From the NCBI GenBank assembly GCA_021286705.1, contig JAJTBW010000001.1, forward strand, positions 9,325-73,324: a DNA stretch of 64,000 nucleotides, written 5' to 3'. Below are positions 6,487 to 39,061 of this stretch, piece by piece. The notes under the pieces were generated by a model. It worked only from the letters and a program-made list of their open reading frames with translations. It ran no database searches and had not been told where the DNA came from. Position 1 is the stretch's first letter. Each line of letters starts with the position of its first letter. The stretch is from Sphingobacteriia bacterium. GTDB taxonomy: Bacteria; Bacteroidota; Bacteroidia; Bacteroidales; TTA-H9. The position numbers and the translations under genes are program-made.

Positions 6487-6652
6487 GAAATGGCGGATCG
6501 TAGACAATCTTTAGTAGTTAAAATGGCGGATCGTAGTCGATCTTTAGTGGTTGAAAGGGTGCATCGTAGTCGATCTTTAGTGGTTGAAAGGGCGCATCGT
6601 AGTCGATTTTTAGTAGTTGAAAGGGCGCATCGTAGGCGATCTTTAGTAGGTT
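6487..6652. repeat. Tandem repeat, 33-bp unit x 5 (GAAAGGGCGCATCGTAGTCGATCTTTAGTGGTT and variants)
   Basis: Unit boundaries read directly at 6487, 6520, 6553, 6586 and 6619. It starts 21 nt after the CPBP stop codon. Confidence 0.95.
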
Positions 6653-6689
6653 GACCGGGCTATTGCAATTTATGTTTTCTTAATAACTG

Positions 6690-12329: not shown

Positions 12330-12645
12330 AAAAGAGCATTTTACGGATAATGGTAAAATTATATCGGTTGCCAGCAGCCAGTAGCCAATCTCTTTTTTCT
12401 AACCATCACATTTCCAGTATCTCTGTGGTTCCTCTCTCATGATTGAGTCTACCCCGATCGGATAAAAAGATTGAGGCTTGATTGTATATTGAGATTTAAT
12501 TGAGATTATCACCGTACAAAGATTGTTCCAAAAAGTTTAACAACACTTTTGTCACTAGTTGATTTTTGTCCCCCATAAAAAAGATACAGGTCTCAGAAAA
12601 GCCTTATTTCATCAGGTTTAACGATAATCCCTTCATTTGAGAGAA

Positions 12646-12711
12646 ATAAGAGAAACATAAGAGAAACATAAGAGCGATATAAGAGGGATATAAGAGGGAT
12701 ATAAGAGAGAG
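12646..12711. repeat. Tandem repeat, 11-bp unit x 6 (ATAAGAGNNNN)
   Basis: Unit boundaries read directly at 12646, 12657, 12668, 12679, 12690 and 12701. Confidence 0.95.
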
Positions 12712-13126
12712 CCTTGTAAAGAACAGTATATTAAGATGTTACGATATAGATTTTTGGATTTGTATAACACTAAGTGAATCAATGAGTTAGATTATTTACT
12801 TTTTTTAATAAATTAGATAAAAAGAGAAAATCGACTGCTGGTTGACCTTACGGTAGTCCATTTATTGGAGTAATTTTTCGTATTTGGGACAGCAGTTCTA
12901 TTTTGGTTACCCTATTCGATAGTAGTTTGGAAGTAGCTTTTCCCTCTTCTTTAAAGAATTCTTAGTTTCTTTCCTTAAAAGAGAGTAGAGCGAAATTTTA
13001 CAAGTGTCGATGATTATACGACCATTTTCCAATCAAAAGTGTCGTTTTAGAATCATTATAGGCTATGATAATCAGGGTGATAAGGAAATTTACTTTTTTT
13101 TCACCTTTTTTGTATTTATGAGAAAC

Positions 13127-13310
13127 TTTTCATATCATTGTGGCTTCGATATTTAGTTTTACTCAATCTAAGTTACATAGGGCAAAATTCAAGATATGTG
13201 CAGAAATTGCATGTGTTTGTTTGATCTTTGTGACCCTTGTTAGACAGTGAGTTATAACTAATTCTCTGGGACTGACGGGGCGAAGCTATAAAAGAGCGAG
13301 CCATTTTTTT
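13127..13310 (+). repeat. Conserved non-coding element, copy 1 (paralogue of 34184-34368)
   Basis: Alignable over ~180 bp with copy 2. Two invariant blocks, TTGTTAGACAGTGAGTTA (13237-13254) and CTGGGACTGACGGGGCGAAGCT (13266-13287), are separated by an 11-nt variable spacer and followed by a T-run. Confidence 0.8.
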
Positions 13311-14310
13311 CATCTGAATTTGAGGTAAAAAACTAGGGGGTGGTCTTCCTCGGTGAAATGTTGGGCTGTTGGAACGTTGACAGGAGTGTAAAAGCTTGGT
13401 TAAGCTTATTCATGAGGTAATTGCGATACCACAGTGTACTGTTTGGAGGATACAAATCTGTTAAATTAGCGTTGCCATGGCTGTTGATATAATAGAACTA
13501 ATTAGTATTAAGTAGAGCGCAATTGCAGTCATCAAAGAGATATACACATTCATAATGCTAAGATTTCGTTGCATTGCAATCGGATCATCTCTTTTCTAGG
13601 CTGATTGAAATAAAAAATAGTGGAGGTCAGCAACTTTAGTTGCCATCTTTTTAGGATGGGTTCCTGTATTAGGTTGGATTCTGTGGTTATTAGGTTTAAT
13701 CTTTTCATTTGTTGGCGTTTTTAAGACACCAAAGGGTTTATCAATTGCCGGATTGGTTATTTCCTTAATAGGAGTAATTATACTAATCGTGGTATTTGGT
13801 GCAATTTTAGGTGCAGCGGCTACCATGCAATAGTGATATTAACGATTTAATCTTTTCGAATGATTATTTGACGTTCAGAAGGACACTTCCTTGAAAGTTC
13901 AACAATCTGCGAAATGGTAAATTTGCCAGTATTCATATCTGTTCCCATTTCCGGTTAGCCGTAAAGGAACAAAATTCAAAAGGGCGACAAGGTTTTTGAT
14001 GGGTATATCATTGTATATGAATATATTATAGGTGATTTTAATAAATTTTAATAGACACTTGTGATTCTAAGAGTATCTGTTTTGTAGAAGGCCAACATTG
14101 GAGATTTGTTTGAGTATTCAGTTGATTATTTACTAAGTCAAAATGACAATCAACTCAGTTTATTTGAAAAGTAAAATATTTATCGCATTAGCAATTTACT
14201 TAGTTAAACTATTTACAGAAGTATTTCTTTTGACTGTTTAAATACCTGTTAAATAGGTGGAGTGAGATTTGTCAAGTCATTATCTTAAAATATTATAGCT
14301 AATTTCTTTA

Positions 14311-14889
14311 ATGAATAAAAATGAATTATTCACATTAACTGATCATCAAATCATTGAAAGCCTCATTCAAGGGAATAGTCAGGTAATTCAGTACTTATTT
14401 TATGAGAAATGTAGCTCCATGTTTGGCTACATTATCAAGGAGATTTTCTCATATAAAGTTGATAAGGATGAACTTGTCAATGAGCTTTATATTTATCTGA
14501 GTGAGGACAACTGGAAAAAAGTCAGGGAATTTGAAGGGCGTAGCAAGTTTACAACTTGGCTTTCAGTAATTTCAGTACGTTATTTCTGTAAGAAAAAGCG
14601 AGATAGGATAGATTTTGATCCAAGAAAAGCCCAAATAGATGAAGCAGCGAAACTTCCCAATACTACTAAGTTTGATAGTTTTGTATGTAATATGGATCTA
14701 TATGGCGCAATAAATAAATTGAAAAATCCCAGGGACCGTTTTGTCTTAATGTCATTAGAAATTCGAGAACAAACAGTTGAGGAGGTTGCTAAGGCACTTA
14801 ATATTTCCGTCGATAATTTGTACAATGTACGTAGAAGAGCAAAAAAACACCTGTCTAATATATTAACCGAATATAAATATGAAAACTAA
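14311..14889 (+). CDS. Sigma-70 family (ECF-like) RNA polymerase sigma factor
   Basis: 192 aa. Region-2-like segment is ELVNELYIYLSEDNWKKVREFEGRSKFTTWLSVISVRYF. Region-4 HTH is RDRFVLMSLEIREQTVEEVAKALNISVDNLYNVRRRAKKHL. Confidence 0.8.
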   Translation: MNKNELFTLTDHQIIESLIQGNSQVIQYLFYEKCSSMFGYIIKEIFSYKVDKDELVNELYIYLSEDNWKKVREFEGRSKFTTWLSVISVRYFCKKKRDRIDFDPRKAQIDEAAKLPNTTKFDSFVCNMDLYGAINKLKNPRDRFVLMSLEIREQTVEEVAKALNISVDNLYNVRRRAKKHLSNILTEYKYEN

Positions 14890-16135
14890 TAAATATATAT
14901 CAGAAGAGTTGTTGGCTGCTTTTATTGATGGAACTACGACTCAGGAACAGAACGATTATACTCTAGATGTTTTCAAGGACGATCCTGAACTATACAAAGA
15001 ATTTTGGATAGCCTATCTGGCAGCAAATTTGCCAGTAGGGGAGGATAGAACTCCTCATGAAAATAATGATACATCTTTTAATGGCAACATCCCTACTATA
15101 ATAGTAGGTGGTGGTATGGCTGCCGGATCACTGATCGGTAATGTGTTTGAGCACAGTCACATTCCAATGGTAGCAGTAAATAGTGATGAAAATAATTTTT
15201 TGGATGATAGATTAATGCATCACAATGACTCAATATCTGCAAACGATTTTACTCATCTGATGGAAATAGCAATTCATAAAGCACCAAATCAATTTGGAGA
15301 AGAGGCAAACAATTACGTTTCACCTAACGTAGATCAAGGATATAGTGATACCTGTGCTGTTCGCTCCCAACAATTAGTATTAAATGATTTTGGAATTCCG
15401 GTAACTCAAGAAGATTTAATTAAAGAGGCTACTCAACATGGTTGGTATACTCAAGGTGAAGGAACTCCTTTGGAGTATGTAGGAAATTTGCTTGAAAATC
15501 ACGGAGTGGAAGTCAATCGGTTTGAAAATGCCAATATCTTTAATTTGACAAATGAGTTAGCACAAGGTCATAAAGTAATTATTGGAGTTGATGCCAACGA
15601 GCTTTGGCATAACGGTTTTTGGCAACATGCTAAAGATTCGATAATCGGAGATACTCCTAATCATGCACTGATTGTTGCTGGAATAGATACCAGTGACCCT
15701 AAGCAAGTACAGGTCATTCTCGAAGACCCGGGAACCGGTGATGTGGCAAAAGCTTATCCTATGGAACAATTTCTGGATGCATGGAAGGATTCTCATTGCT
15801 TTATGGTTTCAACTCAAGAGCCAGCCCCACTAGCATTTAATCAGGAAACAATGATGGGTTTCGATTACGACAAAGGGCGTATTCAAAATTCAGAAACTCT
15901 TATGAGTAGTGTTGAAGACACCTATAGGATATCGGAATACCCCTCCATTGATCCTGAACCAACATTCCCAGAATTCGACCGCATAGATACAAATCATGAG
16001 CCGTCTCATCCCGGATATGTACCTATTAGTGAAGAATATGATCCACGCCATCCGGAATATAAAATAGATAAACACCACCCAGAAGATGATCATCATGATG
16101 ATTTAGATATTTCGCATTTAGACCATAATGTATAA
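14879..16135 (+). CDS. Anti-sigma-like N-terminus + hydrophobic segment + papain-like (C39-type) cysteine peptidase domain + His/Asp-rich tail
   Basis: It overlaps the sigma gene by 11 nt. The N-terminus ISEELLAAFIDGTTTQEQ resembles anti-sigma factors, and IPTIIVGGGMAAGSLIGNVF is a possible TM segment. Peptidase signature is Q-x5-C (DQGYSDTCAVRSQQ), NHALIVAGID (His) and ILEDPG (Asp). The tail is KHHPEDDHHDDLDISHLDH. Confidence 0.6.
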   Translation: MKTNKYISEELLAAFIDGTTTQEQNDYTLDVFKDDPELYKEFWIAYLAANLPVGEDRTPHENNDTSFNGNIPTIIVGGGMAAGSLIGNVFEHSHIPMVAVNSDENNFLDDRLMHHNDSISANDFTHLMEIAIHKAPNQFGEEANNYVSPNVDQGYSDTCAVRSQQLVLNDFGIPVTQEDLIKEATQHGWYTQGEGTPLEYVGNLLENHGVEVNRFENANIFNLTNELAQGHKVIIGVDANELWHNGFWQHAKDSIIGDTPNHALIVAGIDTSDPKQVQVILEDPGTGDVAKAYPMEQFLDAWKDSHCFMVSTQEPAPLAFNQETMMGFDYDKGRIQNSETLMSSVEDTYRISEYPSIDPEPTFPEFDRIDTNHEPSHPGYVPISEEYDPRHPEYKIDKHHPEDDHHDDLDISHLDHNV

Positions 16136-18098
16136 TACGAATATGACACAAGAAGAAATTAAACAAGAAACGACTTTATTGAGAGACAACATACTTTCAA
16201 TAATGAAAAAGATGATTGAACAAAAAGCGGGTAAATTTGGAGATAATCTGCCAGCTTATGATATCAGTTTTGAAGCAGCTTACAATTTACTTATTAAACC
16301 TGATTATAATTTAGTGATTAGTGGCGAAGTAAATAGGGGTAAAAGTACTTTGATTAATGCCATTATTGGTCGAGACATTTTACCAACTTATGATAAGGAA
16401 ACAACTTCACAAGTATTTAAAATTATCAATTCAAAAGTAGAATCTTTTTTCATTGTATTTGACAACGGTGATACACAGACAATCACAAAAGAGGAGCTAA
16501 AGCATTTTGGATCTCAAGTTGAAGCAAGCAATAGTATCAACAATGATTTAGGTAATAGAAGAATTGCTTACATACAAGTAAATACTCCAATTGAATTTTT
16601 ACCTGAAGGTGTTACAATTGTAGATACTCCGGGTATTGGCTCTACCTATAAACAACACTCTGAAATCACAAAAGGCTTTATGCAATATGCTGATTCAATA
16701 ATATATCTGTGCAGTGCCAAAAAGCCGCTTGAGATGACCGACATTAGTTTTATTAAAGACAATGTATTAAGCTTACATCATGTGCCGAGCATCATGTTTG
16801 TGATGTCAAAAGTAGATGAGGCTGATAGCGAGGATGCTTTAAAAGAACAAATCAAAAGAAGTGAAACTTTGATAAAAGAAAACTTTGAGGATAATATTGT
16901 GATTAACAAAACGATATTTCCTGTTAGTAGCATATTGTTGATAAAATCATCAAATGCAACCAACGACTGGAAACATCTTTATTATGATAATTCTTGTTTT
17001 GGAAAGATTAAAGAAGAAATTCAACTTTCAATTATTCGAACCCGTGGTCTTGAATGGTCTATTAATGGATTTAATGAATGTGTAAGATATTATAATAAAG
17101 TCTCAAATTCACTTAGTCAGCACATTGATTTATTTGATAAAACTGTAAATGCCCAAAATGCTACTTTCAAATCAGTGGAAGCCAATAGAGCCAAATTTAT
17201 GTCTGATATGGGGCCTCTAAAAAGTAAAAAAATTCTGGACGATATTGCCAATCTACTAAATGCAATTAAACCTCACATGAGAAAGGAATGTAGTCTGAAT
17301 GGTAATATATATCAAAATTATATTGATAAAATTAAATCAGAATTGAGGTCTGATATGAGTCAGGAAGATATAAATGAATATGCCAATCAATTACAAGAAA
17401 ATGTTATTTCAGACATTACAGATAAATGGAATGAACTCTGTAAAGTTGCAAATGACCAGGTTTCTACCTTATTACAGGAATACAGTCACGAATGTAGCAG
17501 ATACGCAGATGATTCATATACAATAAGCAATACAAATATTGATTTAAAGATTGATATTTCACCATCAAATAGGGAATATATTCAAGGAATTCGTTCTCAA
17601 TACCTTAATGCAATGTTTGTTTGTAATGCCGCAACATTACTTGGAAGCTTAGTTTTTGGCCCCGTTGGTCCAGTTATTTGGGTAATTGCGAATATCGGGC
17701 CTATTTTATATGGAGCTATTTTTGGCAGAAAAGAAGCAAAAGAAAAAGCATTCATTAAAGTTCAAAAAGATATTGAAGACTATTTGAGAAAAATTATACA
17801 TGGTGCAGAAAATCAGCTTTTTGAAGTATCTGTTTTTGATGGTAAATATCAATCAACTGTTGATGCATTTGTAAAATCTATGTATCAATTCTCAGAAAGT
17901 ATGATTAAAGAAACATATAAAAAATGTGAGGAAGAGCTGATTGAAAACGAGAAGAAGGTAAAGGAAATAATTTCCGGTATTGATCCTTCAAAAAAGACTG
18001 TACTCGTTAATCTTCTGACAATATGGAAAGAGTTCGGAAAAAATCTTCAGAGCAACTCTGAAACTTTGAATAAGTTGAATCAAATTATGTTTGCTTAA
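16128..18098 (+). CDS. Dynamin-like GTPase 1 (bacterial dynamin-like protein) with C-terminal hydrophobic hairpin
   Basis: G1 is GEVNRGKSTLINAIIG, G3 is VDTPGIGS and the G4-like motif is MSKVD. A long helical region follows. The hydrophobic segment AATLLGSLVFGPVGPVIWVIANIGPILYGAIFG resembles a BDLP paddle or membrane insertion. Confidence 0.8.
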   Translation: MYNTNMTQEEIKQETTLLRDNILSIMKKMIEQKAGKFGDNLPAYDISFEAAYNLLIKPDYNLVISGEVNRGKSTLINAIIGRDILPTYDKETTSQVFKIINSKVESFFIVFDNGDTQTITKEELKHFGSQVEASNSINNDLGNRRIAYIQVNTPIEFLPEGVTIVDTPGIGSTYKQHSEITKGFMQYADSIIYLCSAKKPLEMTDISFIKDNVLSLHHVPSIMFVMSKVDEADSEDALKEQIKRSETLIKENFEDNIVINKTIFPVSSILLIKSSNATNDWKHLYYDNSCFGKIKEEIQLSIIRTRGLEWSINGFNECVRYYNKVSNSLSQHIDLFDKTVNAQNATFKSVEANRAKFMSDMGPLKSKKILDDIANLLNAIKPHMRKECSLNGNIYQNYIDKIKSELRSDMSQEDINEYANQLQENVISDITDKWNELCKVANDQVSTLLQEYSHECSRYADDSYTISNTNIDLKIDISPSNREYIQGIRSQYLNAMFVCNAATLLGSLVFGPVGPVIWVIANIGPILYGAIFGRKEAKEKAFIKVQKDIEDYLRKIIHGAENQLFEVSVFDGKYQSTVDAFVKSMYQFSESMIKETYKKCEEELIENEKKVKEIISGIDPSKKTVLVNLLTIWKEFGKNLQSNSETLNKLNQIMFA

Positions 18099-18100
18099 TT

Positions 18101-19303
18101 ATGGCCAGGCTAAGTATAGATTTTGGAACATCGTACTGCGCGGCGGCCTGGCTTTCACCTGAATCGGGAAAGCCGGAGGCCATTTCATTTGGAGCCGACG
18201 AATATAATAACAATAAATACTATAAATTTCCTTCAGCATTGATTTATGCAAAAGATCAGGCTGGAAATGAAGACGTTATAGTGGGCAAGCAAGCATACAA
18301 TCAAATTATTTCAGGGAAATCGTGCAAAAATGTTTGTTACAAGATTAAATCAGAGATGCGACCTCAAGTAACAAGACAGATAAATGGTTCACCTAAGAGA
18401 TATGAACAGATTGTAGCTGATTTGTTTAAGGCTATAAAGAAAAGAGCCTCTGATTCATGCAAACAGGATTTTGAAGAAGTAACGATCACACATCCTGCAA
18501 ACTTTGAATATCAGCAGTTATTAATTGATGCTGCTGATATAGCAGGTTGGCCTGAAAACAAAGTAACATTACTGGAAGAACCCATTGCTGCAATTTATGG
18601 TTTCTCTATAAATCAACAGATACCAGATAACTCTGGATTAGTTGTATTTGATTACGGTGGAGGGACAATAGATGTTACATATTTATTTAAAAAATCGAAT
18701 AATGAGTTTAAATGGTTCTTCCCTCCTAAAGGTGAATCAAAGTGTGGTGGTGAATATATCGACTTAGAGCTTTATCGTTACTTCTGCAAGCTTGCTAAAT
18801 TAGAAATGTCCGATTTAATCAACTATGAGTTATTAAATAAATGTCGGGCTATTAAAATAAATTTTTCCACGGATCAATTTTTAACTTCAGATAGGATTAG
18901 TATAGGAGACACCATTTATGCAATAAGTCGAAATAAGTTCAATGAACTAATCCAAATAAAGACTGATAGAGCAATTGATGTATTATCCAAAGTACTACAA
19001 GAATGTAAAAATCAAGATAAAACAATTGATTATTTATTGCTAAACGGGGGAAGTTCAAAGCTCCCAATCATCAAAGAATCTATTTTGAAACTTGGCTTTA
19101 ATGAAGATCAATTGATCTCATTTGATGGAGAGGATATTGCTGTAGCTTTAGGAGGAGTCGCAAAATATATTGAAAATTCTCAGAATAAAACAACGCTTAA
19201 GGAGAAAGAAAATATAAGTAAATTAGTCCATAATCAAAGAGTTAGTGACTTAAAATTTAAAGATCCAATATTTGATAATTTTAATTTTAGGAAAAAGATA
19301 TGA
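18101..19303 (+). CDS. Hsp70/actin-fold ATPase (nucleotide-binding domain only, no substrate-binding domain)
   Basis: Phosphate-1 is LSIDFGTSYCAAAW, phosphate-2 is VVFDYGGGTIDVTYL and the adenosine motif is LLLNGGSSKLPIIKE. The protein ends at 400 aa. Confidence 0.75.
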   Translation: MARLSIDFGTSYCAAAWLSPESGKPEAISFGADEYNNNKYYKFPSALIYAKDQAGNEDVIVGKQAYNQIISGKSCKNVCYKIKSEMRPQVTRQINGSPKRYEQIVADLFKAIKKRASDSCKQDFEEVTITHPANFEYQQLLIDAADIAGWPENKVTLLEEPIAAIYGFSINQQIPDNSGLVVFDYGGGTIDVTYLFKKSNNEFKWFFPPKGESKCGGEYIDLELYRYFCKLAKLEMSDLINYELLNKCRAIKINFSTDQFLTSDRISIGDTIYAISRNKFNELIQIKTDRAIDVLSKVLQECKNQDKTIDYLLLNGGSSKLPIIKESILKLGFNEDQLISFDGEDIAVALGGVAKYIENSQNKTTLKEKENISKLVHNQRVSDLKFKDPIFDNFNFRKKI

Positions 19304-20238
19304 ACATATTAATGGTAGGACATAGTTCGTCCGGGAAAACAAGTTATATGGCGGGGTTGTACAGCATTTTTGGCGATGACAAAGATGGTATTGGTATTAC
19401 AACATATGACCAAGCAAAAAATAAAAGATTAAAAATGATCGCACATGATATTCGATTAGGGAAGTATCCTACGAGTACAGATATAGCATCGGAATATAAT
19501 TTTCATTTAACAATTAATGGAGATTCTATCATCCCTTTTAATTGGTATGATTACCGTGGTGGAGCATTATCTCAATCCTCGAAAAATTCGCCTGAAGTTG
19601 CGGCTCTTGTAAATAAGATTTGCGAAGCAAATGCCTTAATTGTTTTTCTGGATGGTGAGAAGATTGTTCAAAGTACAGACGATGAATTAGAAGAAGAATA
19701 TGAAATATTATTGTGGGCTATTCAGAAATCAATTGGATCAAAAAATAATAATAATTATTTCCCTATATCTTTTGTTATGACAAAAGGAGATCTCTATGAT
19801 GATTATTCTGTTTTATATGAATCTAATGGGCTTGACTATTTTATGCCATTAATCAAAAACATAAAAGATGGTAAAGCAGCAGCTGGTATGGTTACTGCAT
19901 GTGAAGTATCTTCAGGTGGTATTTATAATATTTTTCCTCCTCTTCTATTTTCTTTGTATTATGGAATGTCAGATTACATAAAAAAACGAATTAATTATTT
20001 GAATTCTGAAATAGAGTCTTACAATAAACTATGGCCAAATCTATTAGATGATATTTTTGGTGAATTGTCAGAAATATTTGGCAGTGGCAGTTATAAAACT
20101 GATCGACAGCAAGCGAGGGAGTCAATGGCAAAGATTCAGCAAGAAAAAAACAATTTGGAACTATTGGAGTCTTGTCAGAAAGGGATGAAAGAACAGATTG
20201 ATTCTTGGGTCGAAGAAAATGTTATTCTTGCTTTTTAA
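19300..20238 (+). CDS. Small P-loop GTPase A (TRAFAC-like) with C-terminal coiled coil
   Basis: Walker A is VGHSSSGKTSYM, the DxxG-like motif is WYDYRGG and the NKxD-like motif is MTKGD. There is a 4-nt ATGA overlap with the upstream gene. Confidence 0.65.
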   Translation: MNILMVGHSSSGKTSYMAGLYSIFGDDKDGIGITTYDQAKNKRLKMIAHDIRLGKYPTSTDIASEYNFHLTINGDSIIPFNWYDYRGGALSQSSKNSPEVAALVNKICEANALIVFLDGEKIVQSTDDELEEEYEILLWAIQKSIGSKNNNNYFPISFVMTKGDLYDDYSVLYESNGLDYFMPLIKNIKDGKAAAGMVTACEVSSGGIYNIFPPLLFSLYYGMSDYIKKRINYLNSEIESYNKLWPNLLDDIFGELSEIFGSGSYKTDRQQARESMAKIQQEKNNLELLESCQKGMKEQIDSWVEENVILAF

Positions 20239-20271
20239 AATATCAATAGTTAATATAAAAAAGACATTAAA

Positions 20272-21279
20272 ATGAGACAAATAAGTATAGTTGGATTAAG
20301 GGGCTCAGGTAAAACATGTTACATTTACGCAATGAGCAAAACAATGATGAGAGGTATTAACAGTATATCAATTAACCCTATTGATGACAATCTATACAAT
20401 CAACTAAGAGAAGGATGGAGAAAAATTAAAACTGAAAGAAAATGGCCTGAAAATAGTGATAGAGTGACAAAATGTGAGTTTACTTGCTTTGTTCAATTAA
20501 GACCAGTAATGGATTTTTGTTGGGATGATTATAAGGGAGGTTCTTTGACAGGATTGGATACAATAAGCGCGAAAGAGCGAGAGGAGTTTTATAATTCGTT
20601 ATCTATATCGGATGGAATTATATTCTGTGTTCCTGCCGACACAATAATTGAGGCATTGGAAGGTGATGATGATGCTCAGGATGATATCAACATGCTCAAT
20701 CGATTTATTCTTCAATATGCAAGTAAGAATTCATTAAAAGGAATACCTATTACTGTTGCAATAACTAAAAGTGATTTATTAGATAAAGAAGAGTTATCAA
20801 TAGCATTTCAAGTAGTGAAAAAAACTTTAAACAACTTATTTGCCAAAGGAACTAATGTTTCTGCATTACTCGTCCCAATTTCATTAGGCTCGAATTTGAA
20901 AGGCTTACCTGGAGGTGAAATTACTGGAACAATAAATATGGATCCTAAAGCTGGAAATATTCATTTACCTGTATTATTCAATCTTTATTTTATGTTATTG
21001 GAACAAATTGGCGAATTTAGTAATAATCTAAAATCTCTAAGATCACAGCTTTCAAATGTCAATAGCACTATTAATATGGGAACAAATATGAGCGCATTAA
21101 AAAGATGGTGGGAAGGCATTGATGTTGATTACTTACAAAAGAATAAAGCAGAAATAGAAAAATCTATTGAACAAAAAGAGACGGAACTTAAAGGAATCAG
21201 AACTGATCTTGAAAAAATCAAATCTGAATTTGGAAGTGAGTGTGAGTATTATGATAATGGAGACAATAAACAATTTTAA
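20272..21279 (+). CDS. Small P-loop GTPase B, paralogue of GTPase A
   Basis: Same motif series in the same order: VGLRGSGKTCYI, WDDYKGG, ITKSD, and the shared P-x-LF-x-LY segment. It ends in a C-terminal coiled coil. Confidence 0.65.
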   Translation: MRQISIVGLRGSGKTCYIYAMSKTMMRGINSISINPIDDNLYNQLREGWRKIKTERKWPENSDRVTKCEFTCFVQLRPVMDFCWDDYKGGSLTGLDTISAKEREEFYNSLSISDGIIFCVPADTIIEALEGDDDAQDDINMLNRFILQYASKNSLKGIPITVAITKSDLLDKEELSIAFQVVKKTLNNLFAKGTNVSALLVPISLGSNLKGLPGGEITGTINMDPKAGNIHLPVLFNLYFMLLEQIGEFSNNLKSLRSQLSNVNSTINMGTNMSALKRWWEGIDVDYLQKNKAEIEKSIEQKETELKGIRTDLEKIKSEFGSECEYYDNGDNKQF

Positions 21280-21282
21280 CAC

Positions 21283-22608
21283 ATGAAGTTATTTATTTAT
21301 ACGAGAACCTATAAAGACGATTATAGGCTTATTGCAAGTCCAAATGAGTCTTATTTACCCGAAAATATCTTATGGGCTTTTATAGCCTTTTCTAGAGATG
21401 TGATTAATATTGAAAATCCATTATATGGTGATTTCAAACTTGCGAGATGGTCAATTTATAAATATTATGATTACGTACTATTTGGGATTGGATGTAAAAA
21501 TATAGAATTAAGCGAACACTCTAATGACAAAGTTGGTAGACCTGTTAGAGGATTTTTTGGAGTTGTATTGAAGTTAACTGAGGAAACAAACATTCTTCCT
21601 TTTGATCTACAATATTTTAAAGACATTTATAGATGTTTCATTTCTCCACATTGGGAAGAACGAAATTTTATGCTCAACGATATTGATTGTTTATTAGATA
21701 TCTCTAGATATAATCATCTACCTCCTTCTAATATGCAGTTATTAAACAACATGGTTCTCAAAACAAAATTTTTTCAATACAATAACAAATTAGAGAATTA
21801 TTTAGCCTCATGTCTAAATTATAGCATATGCAATATCGTCACCGGCATTAATGTTGAAGAACACGCAATTGAAGCTGGTTTTATGAATGCATTATCATTT
21901 GATACAATAGAAGAGAAAATTGTTGATAATTCAAAAAAGAAAGAGCAATTAACGAGTCAGAATAAAGTTGTTGTAACTAAAGAAAAAAAGATTCAAAACA
22001 ATAATATCCTATCTGGTTCATCTAAACATTTGATGAAAAATATAATTGCACAAGCAATAGAGACATTGAATCCTTTCTCAAGTTCAAAATCACAACGTCA
22101 TTTTAAAAATCAAGAAATTGATTTAAATATTGAGGATTCTAATAGTAAAATATCAAGAGTTACAATAAATGATGAACCCATTTTAACAACAAAAGACACA
22201 GACGATGAAAATATTGAGCTTCTTCGCCAAGCCTATAAAGAAAACAAACTAAATAAAAATGCACAAGAAGGAGCATTCAATACAGATGCGACAATTGATA
22301 TCAGGAATGATATGTTATCGCTTAAAAATAATGTGGCTGAAAAACAAGAACAGATTAACATAGATAGTTTCGATATAGGATTAATGAGACAAAATATCAA
22401 TACAACAGATAATTTTTCCGATGAAAATACTTCTTTTGATGATCTCCAAGAGATAACACCTGGAAAACAAATTTCAGAAAAATATAGAGAAATATTGTCT
22501 GAGCTTAAATCTTCTATTTCATCAATTGATGACTACAGCATTTCTTCTGAAAAATATATAGAGATAGAAGGTCTGGTAAAAGAATTGATTACTAAAATCA
22601 AAAGTTAG
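21283..22608 (+). CDS. Hypothetical protein (441 aa): ~200-aa N-terminal globular part + N/K/S/D-rich low-complexity C-terminal half
   Basis: The ORF is tightly spaced within the operon, 3 nt after the upstream stop. I recognise no motif. Confidence 0.55.
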   Translation: MKLFIYTRTYKDDYRLIASPNESYLPENILWAFIAFSRDVINIENPLYGDFKLARWSIYKYYDYVLFGIGCKNIELSEHSNDKVGRPVRGFFGVVLKLTEETNILPFDLQYFKDIYRCFISPHWEERNFMLNDIDCLLDISRYNHLPPSNMQLLNNMVLKTKFFQYNNKLENYLASCLNYSICNIVTGINVEEHAIEAGFMNALSFDTIEEKIVDNSKKKEQLTSQNKVVVTKEKKIQNNNILSGSSKHLMKNIIAQAIETLNPFSSSKSQRHFKNQEIDLNIEDSNSKISRVTINDEPILTTKDTDDENIELLRQAYKENKLNKNAQEGAFNTDATIDIRNDMLSLKNNVAEKQEQINIDSFDIGLMRQNINTTDNFSDENTSFDDLQEITPGKQISEKYREILSELKSSISSIDDYSISSEKYIEIEGLVKELITKIKS

Positions 22609-22615
22609 TACAAAT

Positions 22616-24196
22616 ATGGATTATATCTTTTCCACTAAATCAGTATTATCCGAGTTCATTCAATTTATAAAAGAGTCTCCTTGGGTTAATGATTATTCAA
22701 TTCAACTACAACAACTTTTAAGTGGAATAGACGAGCCATGTCGGTTAGCCATTGCAGGAAGAGTAAAAGCCGGTAAAAGTTCTCTTGTAAATACTTTATT
22801 GGGAGGCGATTTTGCAAAAGTTGGTGTAACAGAAACAACAGCTACTATCAATATTTTCAAGTATGGCACCCCTCCTGATAGTGATTTTCCAATACAGTGT
22901 TGTTATGTCGATGGACATAACGAGTGGGTCTCGAAAATCTTTTTGGATTCTTTACAAGGCACTTCAGAAGATAGTTTGACGAAAGTTAGTGAAATCAAGC
23001 ACCTTGTTTATTTTATAAATGATGCCAGACTACAGGATATAATTTTGATTGATACTCCTGGGACGAATGCTGTAGTTGATGAACATCAAAATCAAACTGA
23101 GCTATATTTTGGATTGAGAAGAAGGCATAATTCTGAAACTATCGAACTTACAAACAGTGCCGATGCGGTTATCTATCTTCTTGGAGAAGTGGCTCATGAA
23201 TCAAATCAGGATTTTTTAAGCAATCTAAACGAAACGCTTGGGCAAAGAGCAAACATAAATACTTTAGGTATTATGTCGCAAATTGATCTATCAGACGATC
23301 GTTTGTACAACAAAAAGGAACGAACGATAGATCTGCAGCTCAGATTGTCAAACTATATATCCTCTGTTGTCCCAATCTCGGCTGGTTTAAAGTATTTTTT
23401 GCCAGACAGAAAGGAAGCGGAAAGAATGAAGTCCGTATTAATGCTGTTCAACTCAGAGGAAAACCTAATGAATTGCCTGGAGATGGAAACAATATATATG
23501 ATGCCAACTTTGCCCGGAATTCAGGTTTCATTGGAAGAAAGAAAATCCATTCGTCATTTAGCAGAAGGAATGCCATGGCGAGTATTTGTTGTAATCGCTC
23601 GTGAACTTTATAAACACGACGTTGACTCAGCATTGCGTATTTTAGAAGATTATTCTGGTATAGAGCGCTTAAGAAATGTACTAAACAAACAGTTTTTCGA
23701 AAGAAGTAAAATCCTGAGATGCAACAATGTGGTTGAGAAATTATGCGAAATTCTAAACAACATATTGAAATATGGTGGGTTGGAAAAACTTCGTGAAGAA
23801 GCAAGCATCAAGGATCGTTGTTTAAACGAATGTAGTAATCTGTCCACAGAAATCTCAGTTGTTTTAAAGAGCATGATAGAAAAGCATATGAAATCAGCTC
23901 AATATTTAAAAGACACAGAAACTGAGCTAATAAAAATTAAAGAACAGGTTTTAAAAATCAAACAGGAAACAGAGCGGATAAACAATGATTTCTATTGCCT
24001 CCAACTCCTTTGCGACAACAAAGGCATTTTTAAGTCTGAAGAACTCGAGGAGTTATCAGAGCTATTGTCATACAATACAAAAACGGTAAAATGCAATGAT
24101 CGGAGAGAGTATTGGCAAGATTTAAGTTATCGTTCTATTTCCGAGATTAAGCAAACCATTGCTGAAAGAGCTTATCAAAAATATGATGAACTTTAA
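22616..24196 (+). CDS. Dynamin-like GTPase 2
   Basis: G1 is AGRVKAGKSSLVNTLLG, G2 region is VGVTETT, G3 is IDTPGTNA and the G4-like motif is MSQID. A long helical C-terminal half follows. Confidence 0.75.
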   Translation: MDYIFSTKSVLSEFIQFIKESPWVNDYSIQLQQLLSGIDEPCRLAIAGRVKAGKSSLVNTLLGGDFAKVGVTETTATINIFKYGTPPDSDFPIQCCYVDGHNEWVSKIFLDSLQGTSEDSLTKVSEIKHLVYFINDARLQDIILIDTPGTNAVVDEHQNQTELYFGLRRRHNSETIELTNSADAVIYLLGEVAHESNQDFLSNLNETLGQRANINTLGIMSQIDLSDDRLYNKKERTIDLQLRLSNYISSVVPISAGLKYFLPDRKEAERMKSVLMLFNSEENLMNCLEMETIYMMPTLPGIQVSLEERKSIRHLAEGMPWRVFVVIARELYKHDVDSALRILEDYSGIERLRNVLNKQFFERSKILRCNNVVEKLCEILNNILKYGGLEKLREEASIKDRCLNECSNLSTEISVVLKSMIEKHMKSAQYLKDTETELIKIKEQVLKIKQETERINNDFYCLQLLCDNKGIFKSEELEELSELLSYNTKTVKCNDRREYWQDLSYRSISEIKQTIAERAYQKYDEL

Positions 24197-33853: not shown

Positions 33854-34183
33854 AGGGAGTATGATATTAATGACCAAGTCTGTTACGTTGATGTAAGTCA
33901 TGAGATTCCGTGATGATTGAAAAGAGTATTTGAGTAGTTTAGGTATTAAACCAGATACCTCTGGATAAAAGAGTTTTATACTTATCATCTTAGATGGAAT
34001 GTCAGTTAATGGCTGATAATTATGGATCATAGTTATCAGCTATTTTTTTGTTCTAGGGTTGCGATTTTAGTTCATTCGTTGAAAAACTAATGAACTTGGA
34101 TGATCTGGTTTTTTAAATTAGAATAAAATAATTTTCATAAATATGGTTCAGTTTTACGGGTTTTGGTTGAAAGTTAACAGCCA

Positions 34184-34368
34184 TTTTCTTATCATTGTAT
34201 AACCATTCTGTAAGGCTTACTCAATCTAGATATGATACATGGTGAAATTTTAGATATGCGCATGATTTTCATGTGTGTAATTTGTTGTTGTATGTATTGT
34301 TAGACAGTGAGTTAAAGGAGATTTACTGGGACTGACGGGGCGAAGCTGTAGGGAGTGTGAGCGTTTTT
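34184..34368 (+). repeat. Conserved non-coding element, copy 2 (paralogue of 13127-13310)
   Basis: The invariant blocks are at 34297-34314 and 34326-34347 with the same 11-nt spacing. It ends 18 nt before the ORF at 34386. Confidence 0.8.
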
Positions 34369-34385: not shown

Positions 34386-34844
34386 ATGAAGATATACTCA
34401 GATTACTTTATCGAGCTAACGAAGCCGGTAATTCAGCATACCCATTATTTGGTCACTTATGAAGAAGGAGATATTGTCTATTTTATTGGTTGTTATAAGA
34501 CCCTTAAAAAGGCTAAAGTGGTTCTCAATGCTCTTTGGACGGGTGACTATCTTTCAAAAAAGCGGGGTTTTTACGTGGACTATATCTTGAACCCTTTTGC
34601 TACTGTACCACTTAGAGGTGAAAGGTATATAATTGGTGGATTTTATGGAATCACTGATGGAGAAACCACTGTAGTAATAACGAAAATTGATATAAAGCTT
34701 ATAAATTGGCCTCTAGAAGTTAAGGCCTGTGAAAATGTTCGTCGCCTGTTCCCGGATTTTAAGATGGAAATTGAAGATGAAGAATCGGTACGATATGATG
34801 AGTTTGATGAAAAATACAGACTGAAAATGGATTATGCGAATTGA
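34386..34844 (+). CDS. Hypothetical protein (152 aa)
   Basis: ATG ORF directly downstream of conserved element copy 2. I recognise no family. Confidence 0.5.
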   Translation: MKIYSDYFIELTKPVIQHTHYLVTYEEGDIVYFIGCYKTLKKAKVVLNALWTGDYLSKKRGFYVDYILNPFATVPLRGERYIIGGFYGITDGETTVVITKIDIKLINWPLEVKACENVRRLFPDFKMEIEDEESVRYDEFDEKYRLKMDYAN

Positions 34845-34998
34845 TTCCACTTTCTTTTTATTTGTGCACTTAGGCTGCATACAAAGGCTTTTACTTTGCT
34901 GTGTTATTGATCGGGATGTTCCAAGAACCTTTCATCCATGACTAAAAAATTAAGAAGGTTCTACCTAAAAGGTCTAATTATTAGTTAACAAAGGCTAT

Positions 34999-37365
34999 AT
35001 GAAGTATTACAAGAGGAGTTCTCTGGTCTTCTTATTTATTCTATGCTATTTCATAGGCATTGCCCAAAAGTTGACCATTGCCGACATCCAGAACATCTGT
35101 AACAATAAAGATGTGGATGCAATCAATCAGATCATGCTTGCAAAGGGGTGGTCTTATTATGATTCAAAAGATGAGAATGAGAGAGGATATGGGGTAGTTA
35201 CATGGGCTTATAATAAAAGCAGTTTTGGTGATAAAGCCAATGGTTGGTTTTCTGTGATAACCTCTAATGGACTTTCAGAGCAATGTGAGTATACGGTGTT
35301 CAATAAGCCGGCTTATTTTATTGTCTTCAATGCGATTAAGGCGAATGGGTATAAGTTTCAGAAGAGTTCTGTCGAAGAGAACTCGATAGTAAGTCGGTAT
35401 GCTAATGCTAAGTATTATTTAAGTATCCATACGTTAAAATTAAGTGATGATGAATATGTTGACAATAGTCTCACCGGTTATAAGTTCTTGATTGAAAAGA
35501 AGGGTGGAATATTGGATAATGCCAATGGATCCAAAAAGATCTATTATGAAGACAGTGATGCCTTACAGATAATTTACAATCTAAAGGATGGAATGTTTCA
35601 CGGAGCTGCTACCTGGTATCATCGCAATGGAAAAGTGATGAAAACCGGGAACTTCGTGAACGACAGACAAAATGGTCAGTTTAAAGAGTATGATGAAGAG
35701 GGGAACATGGTGGCGAGCTATACCATGCTGGATGATAGTATTGATGGGATTTTAATGATTTATGATAATCAAAAACTCGTCTCAAAAGTAAGCTATAAAA
35801 ATGGTGCAAAGCAGGGAGTTTGTGAGTACTATTCTTCCAATGATGCGGGTACAATTACTATTTTAGATCAGGGGAATTATATAAATAATGTTCGGGATGG
35901 TGTTTGGAATACCTTTTTGCTAAAGGATGGTAAGAAGTTATTGATGGATTTTATAACCTTTAAGAATGGAGTTCAGGATGGAAAGTTTTGTAAATATAAA
36001 AACGATTCGGTTATCTTTGGGAGTTATAAAAACGATCGCATAGATGGTGAGTATCTGGTGTATAGTAATAATTTGATCAGAGTGTTAGGCATATACGAAT
36101 ATCAAGATACTGTAAATATGTCTTTATGCTCGAAAGGCTTTTATAAGGATGGAAAGAAGACTGGGTTCTGGCGAAATTATCAGGGAAGAGATCGGGTAGA
36201 AGCTGGTTATTACGTTAATGATCTTAAAGAAGGGGAGTGGAAGCGGTATTATGCTGACTATCTTTCTTATGATAAAAGTCTGAATATTAAAGGAGAGTTG
36301 TATTTAGTGGAGCAATACCAACATGGAAAACGAAATGGGAAGTCTGAACGGTTTTCATATATTGTTCCTCAAGTGGTACCTTGTGAAGACTTGAAAAGTC
36401 CCATAAATACTAACTCAGACACCTGTTTTAAGTATTATGTAGAGAGATTTAAAGAGGTGTCAACTTATAAAGATGATCTTCTTGATGGTCTATATCTCTA
36501 CACTGACAGTCATGGGATTATTCTCTCTAAAGGTAATTACCGGAATGGTAAAAAGGAGGGTGAATGGCTTGAGTCTGAGAAGTACACTTCTAATGACGAT
36601 AGTACAATCAATTACTTCCGAAAGGGCACATATAAGAATGATCTGAAGCATGGTCTTTGGATAGAGTCTTTCGAAAATGGTAATATAGCCGCCTCAGCTA
36701 ACTATTATGAAGGGATGCTCAACGGTTTGAGTATTACCTATGGGGAAAGGGATATTAAAAAGTCGAGGCTGAGTTTTCTCTTCGGTGAGTTAACGACGTT
36801 GGAGGTTTTTGATGATAAAGGAGATCAGATTATTAGAATGTATGATATATTGGATGAGACCTCCTCGTTTTATAGGTTGAAAAGAACCTTGATTAATCCT
36901 GATAATACGTTTGTAGGTGAGTATTATTGGGCAAAAGATAATCAGGTTACTAGCTATGATCTGTTTGATATTGTTTTTAGCATTAGTTCAATCAATGAAG
37001 ACGGTAATAGTTGTTATCCGGATGGTATGTTCATTGGTTACGATTCAAAAATGCAAAAGATTTATGAGGGTCGTAAGTATAAGGCAATGAAAATTGGAGA
37101 TTGGATCTACTATTATCCTGATCAGGATGTTGAAGTTAAGATTGGATATGGTAAGGATGGTGAGATTGAAAGTGAAAGATATGTGACTATGTCGTCTCAG
37201 GAGGATTTTTCTGGTACGTTTAAATATATCGACTCGAAAGAGAATACCCGCGAGGAGTGTAAAATTAAAAAGGGACTTAGAAATGGGAAGTCTGTTCTTT
37301 ATGATATGACATCGGGGGATAAGATTAAAGTGGTGAGGTATTCTGAGGGTAAGGTGGAGGAATAG
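34999..37365 (+). CDS. Secreted protein built from many YwqK/MORN-variant repeats (788 aa)
   Basis: It has a signal-like N-terminus. G-x-W/F-x-x-Y-x-x-x-G modules recur, e.g. HGAATWYHRNGKVMKTGNFVNDRQNGQFKEYDEEGNMV, KKTGFWRNY, LKEGEWKRYY and LKHGLWIESFENGN. Confidence 0.65.
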   Translation: MKYYKRSSLVFLFILCYFIGIAQKLTIADIQNICNNKDVDAINQIMLAKGWSYYDSKDENERGYGVVTWAYNKSSFGDKANGWFSVITSNGLSEQCEYTVFNKPAYFIVFNAIKANGYKFQKSSVEENSIVSRYANAKYYLSIHTLKLSDDEYVDNSLTGYKFLIEKKGGILDNANGSKKIYYEDSDALQIIYNLKDGMFHGAATWYHRNGKVMKTGNFVNDRQNGQFKEYDEEGNMVASYTMLDDSIDGILMIYDNQKLVSKVSYKNGAKQGVCEYYSSNDAGTITILDQGNYINNVRDGVWNTFLLKDGKKLLMDFITFKNGVQDGKFCKYKNDSVIFGSYKNDRIDGEYLVYSNNLIRVLGIYEYQDTVNMSLCSKGFYKDGKKTGFWRNYQGRDRVEAGYYVNDLKEGEWKRYYADYLSYDKSLNIKGELYLVEQYQHGKRNGKSERFSYIVPQVVPCEDLKSPINTNSDTCFKYYVERFKEVSTYKDDLLDGLYLYTDSHGIILSKGNYRNGKKEGEWLESEKYTSNDDSTINYFRKGTYKNDLKHGLWIESFENGNIAASANYYEGMLNGLSITYGERDIKKSRLSFLFGELTTLEVFDDKGDQIIRMYDILDETSSFYRLKRTLINPDNTFVGEYYWAKDNQVTSYDLFDIVFSISSINEDGNSCYPDGMFIGYDSKMQKIYEGRKYKAMKIGDWIYYYPDQDVEVKIGYGKDGEIESERYVTMSSQEDFSGTFKYIDSKENTREECKIKKGLRNGKSVLYDMTSGDKIKVVRYSEGKVEE

Positions 37366-37618
37366 TTCATTATTCAGATAATCTATGATTGAGAACCTTT
37401 AGAGATTAAAAGGGCTGTTAGATTATTCTTTTTCAGGTTTGATACTAATGATCATGTGCTTCTTGAAGAAAATTACCTATTCTTGATAATGATTATTGAG
37501 CGTTTTTGGAGATTGTTTTGAATGAGATACTGTTGGTATGCGATTGAAAGTAAGGTTTAAAAGTGTATATTAGATTGGTGCATTAGTAAAATGATTTTTT
37601 ATTAAGTAAAGTTGATCT

Positions 37619-39061
37619 ATGGGATCTGATTTAAAGCGCTATTTTGAGCATGAATTATTCTTCCAGCAGACGGTAGCTTTTAATCTATTACAAAAGTTTA
37701 TAAGTGGTGGCAATTCAAGGATTTTTATTCTGAAAGGTTATGCTGGAACTGGAAAGACTACTTTAATGAGTGGTTTTATAAAGTGGTTGAGAGAGCAGCA
37801 TCTGACGTGGGTTTTATTAGCCTCTACAGGACGAGCTTCAAAAGTATTATCTGATAAGACCGAGACTTTATCCAATACCATTCATAGTTTTATCTATATT
37901 TTTCGTGACTTGGATGATGATTTGGATTCTCTTCTTAATAAAGAGGACAAGCTTGAAGTTAATGATAAAGGTCAGATAAGTCTTTTGTTTGATTTAAAAG
38001 TAGTTGGATCTAATCTTGAGAATATTTACATTGTCGATGAAGCCTCAATGATTAGTGATACTTCTGATGCAAATAGTTCATTTGCAAAATTTGGTAACGG
38101 TAAACTTCTCACAGATCTTCTGCGTTTTGATGCAAAAGGTCGGTTTATTTTTGTTGGAGATCCATGTCAACTTCCTCCTGTTGGTCAAGGCTTTTCGCCT
38201 GCCCTTTCGAAAGAGTATATTGAGAAAACCTTTGGAGAAAAGGTTGTTGAGTATGAAATGACGGAGGTTGTGCGACAGGCTAAAAAGAATGGAATAATTG
38301 ATGCTTCCCTGAAACTCAGAATTCTAAGGGATACAAATCCTGCTGTTAAATGGGCTTCTTTACCTTTGAAGGGGCATTCTAATATTGTTCTTCATGAATC
38401 ACATGCAAGTTTGTTAAGAATGTATATCTATAAAGTTAAAGAATTTGGGTTTGATTATACGACATTGCTTTGTCAAACTAACCGTCATTGTTCTGATCTA
38501 AACAGAATTCTCAGACCTGCCTTGGGTCTAGATAGTTATAGCTTGGCAGTGAATGACATACTATTGGTTACTCAGAATAATAATTTAACTGGTTTAGTGA
38601 ATGGCGATATTATAAAAGTTAATCGTATTGGAAATAGAATACGACGTTGTGATCTTTCTTTTGTAAATGTTGAGGTTCAGGAATTGGTATCTAAGAGGAT
38701 TTCGGAAGTACTTTTAATTGAGAATATTTTGGGTTCAATGGTGACGAATTTGAATTCCAAACAGCATAAAGATCTAATGGTTGATTTCTATCTAAGGATG
38801 AAGAGCCTGGGGATTAAGCAAAAAGATGAAGCCTTTAAAATAAGAATGTTAGAAGACCCCTTTTTGAATGCCTTGAGGTCAGTATATGGTTATGCCCTAA
38901 CTTGCCATAAAGGACAAGGAGGTGAGTGGAATGAAGTTTTTTTGTATCTGGATAATAAGATTCATGGAATACCAAAGCCCGAAATTTACCAATGGCTATA
39001 TACTGCTGTAACGAGGGCTAAAGTAACATTACATATAGTAGATGATTGGTTTGTTAAATAG
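37619..39061 (+). CDS. RecD/TraA-like SF1 DNA helicase (AAA_30 + UvrD_C_2-type)
   Basis: Walker A is GYAGTGKTTLM and Walker B is IYIVDEASMIS. Other helicase motifs are FVGDPCQLPPVG, ALTCHKGQGGEW and LYTAVTRAKVTLHIV. Confidence 0.8.
   Translation: MGSDLKRYFEHELFFQQTVAFNLLQKFISGGNSRIFILKGYAGTGKTTLMSGFIKWLREQHLTWVLLASTGRASKVLSDKTETLSNTIHSFIYIFRDLDDDLDSLLNKEDKLEVNDKGQISLLFDLKVVGSNLENIYIVDEASMISDTSDANSSFAKFGNGKLLTDLLRFDAKGRFIFVGDPCQLPPVGQGFSPALSKEYIEKTFGEKVVEYEMTEVVRQAKKNGIIDASLKLRILRDTNPAVKWASLPLKGHSNIVLHESHASLLRMYIYKVKEFGFDYTTLLCQTNRHCSDLNRILRPALGLDSYSLAVNDILLVTQNNNLTGLVNGDIIKVNRIGNRIRRCDLSFVNVEVQELVSKRISEVLLIENILGSMVTNLNSKQHKDLMVDFYLRMKSLGIKQKDEAFKIRMLEDPFLNALRSVYGYALTCHKGQGGEWNEVFLYLDNKIHGIPKPEIYQWLYTAVTRAKVTLHIVDDWFVK

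Follow-up and report, generated by a model that had tools for sequence, protein, structure and literature searches.

A probable leader with a putative loading site for a NusG-type factor precedes two accessory gene blocks in a Bacteroidales genome

The leaders of the capsule operons of Bacteroides fragilis carry opsX elements of ∼40 bp, which combine a nascent-RNA pause hairpin, a non-template DNA hairpin (5'-YGCGNAGCR) and a sequence-specific stretch of upstream duplex DNA, and UpxY loads onto the RNA polymerase paused at opsX (Saba et al., 2024, Nat Commun, PMC11685472). The PSE ops reads CTGCGAAGCATA and has a hairpin before it (PMC11685472). A related logic is found at the ops or JUMPStart site of Enterobacteria, where a leader pause and a non-template DNA hairpin serve to load a NusG paralogue encoded in trans, RfaH; this one factor drives several unlinked, long, horizontally acquired operons through an identical 12-nt site (GGCGGTAGCGTG) that needs no upstream hairpin. 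Further leader signals for processive antitermination are the LoaP leader hairpin of Bacillus/Firmicutes, EAR and put, whose operons are of the secondary-metabolite, polysaccharide or phage type; LoaP is proposed to bind an RNA hairpin via its KOW domain; EAR and put are RNAs that act on the polymerase. In this study, we analyzed a 64,000-nt window of the genome of Sphingobacteriia bacterium (assembly GCA_021286705.1, contig JAJTBW010000001.1, positions 9,325 to 73,324 of the forward strand), in which a non-coding element occurs twice. We consider that this element is probably a promoter and transcribed leader with a pause-and-load site for a specialized NusG-type (UpxY/RfaH-like) factor.

The two copies lie on the plus strand at ∼13106-13326 (copy 1) and ∼34162-34384 (copy 2) and are 71% identical. 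A global alignment of 13127-13310 with 34184-34368 gave 136 identities in 192 columns, whereas shuffled sequences averaged 51% and never exceeded 57%. Because the 150-nt flanks of the two copies align at 51 and 48%, which is the random level, the repeat is sharply bounded; its similarity exceeds the ends first noted slightly, to ∼13326 and ∼34384. Two blocks are invariant, an 18-mer (TTGTTAGACAGTGAGTTA; 13237-13254 and 34297-34314) and a 22-mer (CTGGGACTGACGGGGCGAAGCT; 13266-13287 and 34326-34347), separated by 11 variable nt (TAACTAATTCT and AAGGAGATTTA, respectively). Each block was found only twice in the window with up to three mismatches allowed, the chance expectation being 0.00 and 0.08. 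The sequence-only reading that had drawn attention to the element was right about the number, orientation and coordinates of the copies, the two blocks with their spacer, the T-run after each copy (13304-13310 and 34364-34368), the 18 nt between the end of copy 2 and the ATG at 34386, and the place of copy 1 in a gene desert, poor in open reading frames (ORFs) from 12330 to 14310, ∼1 kb before a sigma-factor gene at 14311. Its description of a low-GC setting held in part. In 1-kb windows around copy 1, GC content is 0.525 at 11-12 kb but 0.36-0.31 at 13-15 kb, and around copy 2 it is 0.425 at 33-34 kb but 0.34 at 34-35 kb, a less sharp drop than had been described, and the 57% given for 31.1 kb is absent at this scale (0.42).

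Overlapping the 22-mer is an ops-like core of 24 nt, with the consensus T-GGGACTGACGGGGCGAAGC-Y-R-T-R (Y, pyrimidine; R, purine), which reads T GGGACTGACGGGGCGAAGC TAT A in copy 1 (13267..13290, +) and T GGGACTGACGGGGCGAAGC TGT A in copy 2 (34327..34350, +) and is present at ∼110 intergenic loci in all. A scan of one genome per species with the search key GGGACTGACGGGGCGAAG yielded 82 loci, ∼73 of them intergenic and of low to medium GC. Their hosts were mostly Bacteroidota (Bacteroidales, Flavobacteriales, Chitinophagales, Cytophagales and Sphingobacteriales), Rhodothermales/Rubricoccaceae and Acidobacteriota, with single cases among Calditrichaceae, spirochaetes and one Alteromonadaceae metagenome-assembled genome (MAG). 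Conservation extended to positions outside the key, with T at -1 in 72/74 loci, C at +1 in 74/74, Y at +2 in 73/74, R at +3 in 65/74, T at +4 in 70/74 and R at +5 in 60/74. The nearest downstream ORF was on the same strand at 58 loci versus 7, and the median gap was 76 nt. Several MAGs held two to four core copies on different contigs; L107, for example, has two exact cores and a third, mutated one. The third element copies of L107 (5780-6160, -) and L012 (4815-5195, -) precede decayed fragments of the 152-aa and 788-aa genes that follow copy 2 in the window. One point mutation each was found within the otherwise invariant core of L107a and L012a (CTGATGGGG and CTGACGAGG, respectively), a pattern that relaxed selection on a dead leader would produce.

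The invariant blocks are predicted to pair with each other in a putative RNA pause hairpin (13235..13280 in copy 1 and 34296..34340 in copy 2, both +). The outer stem is CCTTGTTAG/CTGACGGGG in copy 1, enclosing an inner stem-loop built from part of the 18-mer and the 11 variable nt, and TTGTTAG/CTGACGG in copy 2, where the inner stem is CAGTGAGTT/GATTTACTG. In the predicted fold, the 18-mer gives the 5' arm TTGTTAG and part of the inner stem, the 22-mer gives the 3' arm CTGACGG, and the variable nucleotides form the inner loop and the 3' inner arm. The 7-bp outer stem has three G-U pairs, which point to RNA rather than DNA pairing. Directly after the hairpin comes the mini-hairpin GCGAAGC (13280-13286 and 34340-34346), and the predicted pause 3' end is a T at 13289 and 34349; the predicted TTGTTAG/CTGACGG(GG) stems of both copies stop 9-10 nt before this conserved T, compared with about -9 to -12 from the pause for the hairpin of class-1 opsX. 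All other GCG-N1-2-AGC sites of the window are in coding sequence or a tandem repeat. An 18/36-nt tandem repeat (GCGGGGGCTGCTACGCAG, 6.3 copies) occupies 518-631 between the ORFs 189-518 (+) and 634-2013 (-), and on the minus strand it reads as CCCCGCYTGCGWAGCA units, each with the GCG-N-AGC mini-hairpin motif.

The same layout was seen across the family. At the genome loci, a pause-hairpin 5' arm (YGTYRG) lay within 75 nt in 31/73 cases compared with 7.7 expected, and at least 10 of the 13 core nucleotides were paired in 52% of loci versus 22% of shuffles. An independent metagenome set, selected on the two pause-hairpin arms only, comprised 40 true loci and 67 other or chance hits. The sequence after the hairpin was again a GNA or GNRA mini-hairpin (GCGAAGC, GCGGAAGC or GCGAAAGC), and five loci carried ACGGAAGT or ACGAAAGT, in which a compensatory change has turned the closing pair from G:C into A:T. 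In this set, the conserved T stands exactly 10 nt from the start of the mini-hairpin whatever the loop length and the next base is G or A, a fixed register as predicted for a pause site (Y-1, R+1). Judged by sequence only, the genome loci likewise fit the pause consensus (G-10, Y-1, G/R+1), with the T in 70/74, then R in 60/74, and G ten nt upstream.

Further upstream, the copies share the stretch TTTTC(A/T)TATCATTGT, which includes TATCATTG and has TTTG ∼20 nt before it. The Bacteroidetes promoter consensus is reportedly TTTG/TAnnTTTG, as described by Bayley and colleagues in 2000, and by its fit to TAnnTTTG the shared stretch is a predicted -7 promoter box. The promoter of copy 1 (13109..13140, +) would consist of a -33-like TTTG at 13109-13112, a 20-nt spacer and the -7 box TATCATTG at 13133-13140, with a putative start near 13147; that of copy 2 (34162..34197, +) would have TTTG at 34162-34165 or TTG at 34167-34169, the same -7 box at 34190-34197 and a predicted start near 34204. 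The T-A-n-n-A-T-T-G columns of the box are invariant in 14/14 long-form copies, and many Bacteroidota copies have TAnnTTTG-type -7 boxes, read by eye, 40-70 nt upstream of the core. Two more parts of the leader are conserved. The first is a TACTCAA box (13160..13166, + in copy 1; 34218..34224, + in copy 2, by sequence comparison), possibly half an operator; the short-form relatives have it as an arm of a TTGAGTA-N5-7-TACTCAA palindrome that overlies the -7 box. The second is leader hairpin 1 (13192..13219, +, AGATATGTGCA/TGCATGTGTTT, from a single-sequence fold prediction; 34255..34279, +, TATGCGCATGA/TCATGTGTGTA, also predicted), which is retained in most of the 14 long-form copies with changes that are mostly one-sided and few double. 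Hairpin 1 was considered and rejected as a terminator: the consensus scan flags copy 2 only, the stem is weak and rich in AU and GU pairs, and it lies upstream of the ops-like site.

Neighboring genes were compared by clustering the ORFs around the core. Two families led in frequency, an unannotated one of ∼175-aa proteins (17/73 genome loci), described below, and one of ∼160-aa proteins. The ∼160-aa cluster, present at 16/73 genome loci, matched Pfam NusG (E 1e-21) and the NCBIfam model "UpxY family transcription antiterminator" (148 bits, cutoff 100), and UpxY-like genes stood by the core in 6/40 true metagenome loci versus 0/67 of the other hits; UpxZ was not found among the core neighbors. 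Polysaccharide functions were frequent, including Wza, Wzc, an epimerase, UDP-glucose dehydrogenase, an aminotransferase, a glycosyltransferase and ABC-2 proteins. Contractile-injection tail sheath and tube genes and long tyrosine recombinases also recurred. Other long-form copies head genes for HSDR_N and TIR proteins, PKD proteins secreted by the type IX secretion system, a DUF1848-like protein (assigned by eye) and others.

These properties place the element closest to class-1 opsX. As in opsX, both copies lie on the coding strand of a leader (here predicted to be transcribed) between promoter and first gene; a predicted RNA hairpin directly precedes the GCG-N-AGC mini-hairpin, whose GCGAAGC is identical in the PSE ops; a pyrimidine and then a purine follow at a fixed short distance; the would-be upstream duplex is conserved; and UpxY-family genes and capsule-type operons are linked to many members of the core family. 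Unlike class-1 opsX, the core in the window has the consensus G-GCGAAGC-Y instead of Y-GCGNAGC-R, although the flanking pair is still complementary, and one more nt separates the conserved T from the 7-nt hairpin. The predicted leader is also much longer (∼140 nt) and has an extra hairpin, the TACTCAA box and the T-run. Compared with RfaH ops, the logic would be shared, including long acquired operons and one factor for several of them, whereas the site differs in sequence and phylum and has an upstream hairpin. RfaH ops/JUMPStart was rejected as its identity, for the core sequence differs and no Rfam match appeared at the gathering threshold or at E<=10. The LoaP, EAR and put leaders are alike in using an RNA hairpin in a leader signal, but they have no sequence or Rfam similarity to the element, and the 3' arm of the hairpin in the window is sequence-invariant.

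By analogy, the following course of events may be proposed. Transcription would start at a Bacteroidetes sigma-A promoter (-33 TTTG, -7 TATCATTG) ∼140 nt before the core, and the transcript would present, in order, the first hairpin, the long hairpin with its TTGTTAG 5' arm and CTGACGG(GG) 3' arm, the mini-hairpin GCGAAGC and Y-R-T-R. RNA polymerase would pause at the conserved T, stabilized by the nascent RNA hairpin as at class-1 opsX. Within this paused complex, GCGAAGC would be exposed as a hairpin on the non-template strand, with GGGACTGACGG in the duplex upstream. A NusG paralogue of the UpxY family would then load in an RfaH-like manner and render the polymerase resistant to pausing and termination, so that the long, foreign, AT-rich operons downstream could be transcribed to their end; expression of the distal genes would depend on GCGAAGC and GGGACTGAC. 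The gene for this factor would lie outside the window, elsewhere in the genome, and its product would serve both copies in trans. This proposal draws on the sequence anatomy, the family-wide conservation, the orientation, the link to UpxY genes and the compensatory variants, from which we infer transcription, pausing, factor loading and antitermination at the two copies. Among the options that had been raised from the sequence alone, that of a 5' leader or structured RNA gains support from the 5' promoter box, the orientation toward downstream genes, and the hairpin arms with the ops-like site. That of a bipartite protein-binding site holds only loosely: a NusG-type factor on the paused polymerase probably recognizes the 22-mer, but the 18-mer would be mainly its pairing partner.

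Several observations weigh against a UpxY-type loading site. First, the hairpins exceed shuffles to a moderate, not an overwhelming, degree; the 3' arm of the pause hairpin was itself the search key, and the only changes seen in this hairpin were one-sided and wobble-compatible. The 13-nt GGGACTGACGGGG of the core family is invariant across phyla, whereas the upstream sequences of B. fragilis opsX vary for specificity. Second, the window contains neither a UpxY nor a UpxZ gene: no UpxY/NusG-like ORF was detected in the 64 kb (hmmsearch with all filters off, best E 0.7), none near any long-form metagenome locus, and the first ORF after copy 2, of 152 aa, belongs to no family, unlike opsX operons, whose first genes are the cognate UpxY/UpxZ. 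A trans-acting factor must be assumed, because no NusG paralogue lies in the window or beside the long-form copies. Third, the genes behind the two copies are not capsule operons but defence-like or accessory ones, an ECF (extracytoplasmic function) sigma/dynamin/Hsp70/GTPase block and a MORN/PDC-M16A helicase block, though many family members do head polysaccharide genes. Fourth, copy 1 is atypical in the ∼1 kb that separates it from the next intact gene, and the sigma-factor operon beyond is found with the element in metagenome contig L085 but without it in L084, where homology begins at window position 14177. Finally, a second protein family associates with the core at least as often as UpxY and may be its real partner.

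That family, unannotated proteins of ∼175 aa with an N-terminal winged helix-turn-helix (wHTH) and a C-terminal nucleotidyltransferase-like part, is the basis for the best of the alternatives, which has some, though rather little, likelihood: the element would be a leader RNA or DNA site with another partner, either a protein-independent antiterminator RNA like put and EAR, or a target of the wHTH protein. The protein flanks 17/73 genome loci and 12/40 metagenome loci, often without a UpxY gene near, versus 1/67 of the other hits (L134); L005, L006, L011, L015, L017, L092, L097, L131 and L164 are among its loci, and no Pfam or NCBIfam model matches it. Core and hairpin are also sequence-invariant, as for a specific RNA or protein contact, and variants have GNRA-type loops (GAAA, GGAA). 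However, the presence of the wHTH protein tracks the promoter palindrome TTGAGTA-N-TACTCAA more closely: this palindrome is probably its operator, because loci with TTGAGTA-N5-7-TACTCAA usually encode the wHTH protein downstream. The window has no full palindrome and no ORF of the wHTH family, as searched with hidden Markov models built from the family neighbors. Furthermore, the structure is small and has no Rfam match to EAR or put, and the layout of GCG-N-AGC with a pause hairpin is exactly that documented for UpxY loading.

A less probable view takes the element as an independent small RNA gene of ∼160 nt, running from promoter to T-run and acting in trans, its position before accessory genes being incidental. 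Such a gene would be equipped with a promoter box, two hairpins and, 18 nt past the core, a T-run, features that both window copies share with L012, L004 and L007, and no intact gene follows copy 1 for 1 kb. The T-runs (13304-13310, +, in copy 1; 34364-34368, +, in copy 2, from the sequence reading) were examined as intrinsic terminators at the end of a small RNA and rejected, the terminator scan being empty at both. Since no G+C-rich stem precedes them and a T5 run within 45 nt of the core is present in only 13/74 loci, making the feature subfamily-specific rather than family-wide, we do not call them terminators. The core itself behaves as a 5' untranslated region, because it lies a median of 76 nt before a gene on the same strand, and in Acidobacteria the start codon of an ExeA-like ATPase is 21 nt past it. 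Nor does the element belong to a described RNA family, in agreement with the sequence-only reading: Rfam gave no match at the gathering score over the whole window, and permissive runs on both copies (E<=10) returned only chance-level matches to eukaryotic small nucleolar and long non-coding RNAs at E>1. A literature search for the exact motif found unrelated primer matches only, and no paper describing the 24-nt consensus.

A role of the core in recombination or attachment, or as the conserved terminus of an element that integrates or exchanges cassettes, is very improbable. Such a role would account for a location at the border of variable, AT-rich cargo. The idea draws on the cargo, which differs behind homologous copies (window versus L187, L012/L107 and L084), on tyrosine recombinases of the long type, encoded directly after the core in five loci (L034, L037, L060, L074 and L166), on an integrase fragment in L187, and on the d(GCGAAGC) DNA hairpin, which Hirao and colleagues are said to have found very stable. 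L187 represents the orthologous site, 90% identical to 10353-13440 with copy 1 included, and its cargo differs from 13440 onward; homology thus continues ∼150 nt past the core before the cargo diverges. In addition, no terminal inverted repeats or direct duplications surround copy 1, the orientation bias is strong (58 versus 7), the core is linked to UpxY and to non-mobile capsule operons, and the G-U pairs of the long stem fit RNA, not DNA. The earlier suggestion of a relic end or attachment region is therefore not supported. A tRNA-derived att site is not indicated either, because the scan of the window found no tRNA or tmRNA. Searches with BLAST against phage, plasmid and Escherichia coli genome collections gave no match to the element, and the single match in a scan of viral contigs is attributed to chance because it lies inside a high-GC coding region. 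A terminus of a known insertion sequence (IS) or miniature inverted-repeat transposable element (MITE), named beforehand as what would overturn the idea of a conserved element, was rejected on the same database searches and orientation bias, on the lack of a flanking inverted repeat at copy 1, and on the 16/20 repeat of copy 2, which is not conserved. This 20-nt imperfect inverted repeat (34131-34150/34374-34393) encloses all of copy 2, and 0/60 shuffles reached 16 matches; neither copy 1 nor the homologous copies of L107 and L012 have it, and it is probably due to chance. It may suggest an invertible, phase-variable promoter, a reading we consider unlikely since the repeat is only marginally above shuffles and does not recur in copy 1 or the homologues.

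Equally improbable is an alternative-sigma promoter within the 22-mer, of sigma-54 type (TGGGAC-N-GGGC, GG/GC at -24/-12 spacing; 8/12 consensus positions match when TGGCACG-N4-TTGCW is compared with TGGGACT-GACG-GGGCG, with GG and GC correctly spaced) or recognized by the ECF sigma factor encoded 1 kb after copy 1, because five variants turn the would-be -12 GC to AC with the mini-hairpin restored by a compensatory T, all long forms have a sigma-A type -7 box at a fixed upstream position, the partner TTGTTAG is conserved at a variable distance and not needed by a promoter, no cluster of enhancer-binding ATPases is among the frequent neighbors, L084 has the sigma operon without the element, and copy 2 has no sigma gene.

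Returning to the reading as a NusG-type loading leader, the operon most probably served by copy 2 occupies 34386..39061 (+), 36 nt separating the core end from its ATG, and encodes the 152-aa ORF, a 788-aa MORN-repeat protein and a 480-aa superfamily 1 (SF1) helicase. The helicase matches the candidate defence protein PDC-M16A (E 1.6e-118); the 152-aa protein had no family match, and an exact-protein look-up returned no record. After this operon come a WYL regulator, a DUF4407 gene and a type I-B CRISPR-Cas locus. Downstream of the type I-B cas genes (Cas6b at 42488-43156), a CRISPR array extends from 56620 to 64000 and off the window end, with at least 100 units of a 37-nt repeat (CTGAGGAACCCTCTTCCAGAATAATAAGGATTAAGAC) at a period of ∼73 nt.

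For copy 1, a possible but uncertain target is the block 14311..24196 (+), which encodes an ECF sigma factor, a C39-like peptidase, a dynamin-like GTPase, Hsp70, two DO-GTPases, an unknown protein and a second dynamin-like GTPase. Its first gene is of the ECF-type sigma-70 family (TIGR02937, 53 bits, cutoff 42.9). The block is similar to a conflict system, its dynamin-like GTPases being LeoA/LeoBC-like, and has variants in contigs L084 and L085. The tie between copy 1 and the sigma operon, which had been implied by the stated distance of ∼1 kb, is correct as to position and weaker as to function: the link is uncertain because L084 has the operon without the element and because a second -7-like box lies at 14005-14012. 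Between copy 1 and this operon, an open frame for a small, very hydrophobic membrane protein (13621-13833, +; …LGWILWLLGLIFSFVGVF…VISLIGVIILIVVFGAILGAAATMQ) has no canonical start before 13753 and is probably a decayed gene.

The host, as judged from its sequence, is a close relative of an uncultured Bacteroidales MAG, sharing 94-97% identity with L012 and L107 in the cupin-OsmC segment and the Crp gene. With cargo changing among these relatives behind homologous copies, the module appears, from sequence comparison, to behave as a conserved "socket" before exchangeable accessory genes. Repeats of other kinds were also noted. An intergenic array of an 11-nt unit (6.5 copies) lies at 12639-12710, 420 nt upstream of copy 1, and further intergenic tandem repeats lie at 3457-3676 (based on TTGAATC) and 6487-6654 (33-nt unit, five copies). 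Repeats of ∼130-260 bp at 25614-26090 and 27851-28275 recur several times in the window and in L187, L136, L022, L107 and L012; they adjoin a DDE transposase fragment (25247-25603) and are probably MITE-like or IS-end repeats.

Loading of a UpxY-type factor has so far been shown only for Bacteroides capsule operons, and in this genome the putative counterpart of such a site stands before two acquired blocks of defence type. For annotation, the element would account for a class of conserved "non-coding repeats" that mark the upstream border of AT-rich islands. If our reading is true, control of the UpxY type, so far described for eight capsule operons in a single Bacteroides species, would extend to a deeply conserved site of several phyla, would gain defence-type operons, contractile injection systems and integrases as new classes of target, and could also operate with a factor encoded outside the operon that it controls. 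The 24-nt tag would then predict accessory operons controlled at elongation in Bacteroidota and would flag an unannotated regulator family that travels with the site. More tentatively, and with a good deal less confidence than for the leader itself, the 24-nt site may define an RfaH-like, trans-acting regulon of "xenogene activation" common to Bacteroidota, Rhodothermales and Acidobacteriota, perhaps together with the wHTH-nucleotidyltransferase-like regulator, which would reach defence islands, contractile injection systems and integrases, so that the expression of defence islands might be gated at elongation while their cargo is exchanged behind the socket.

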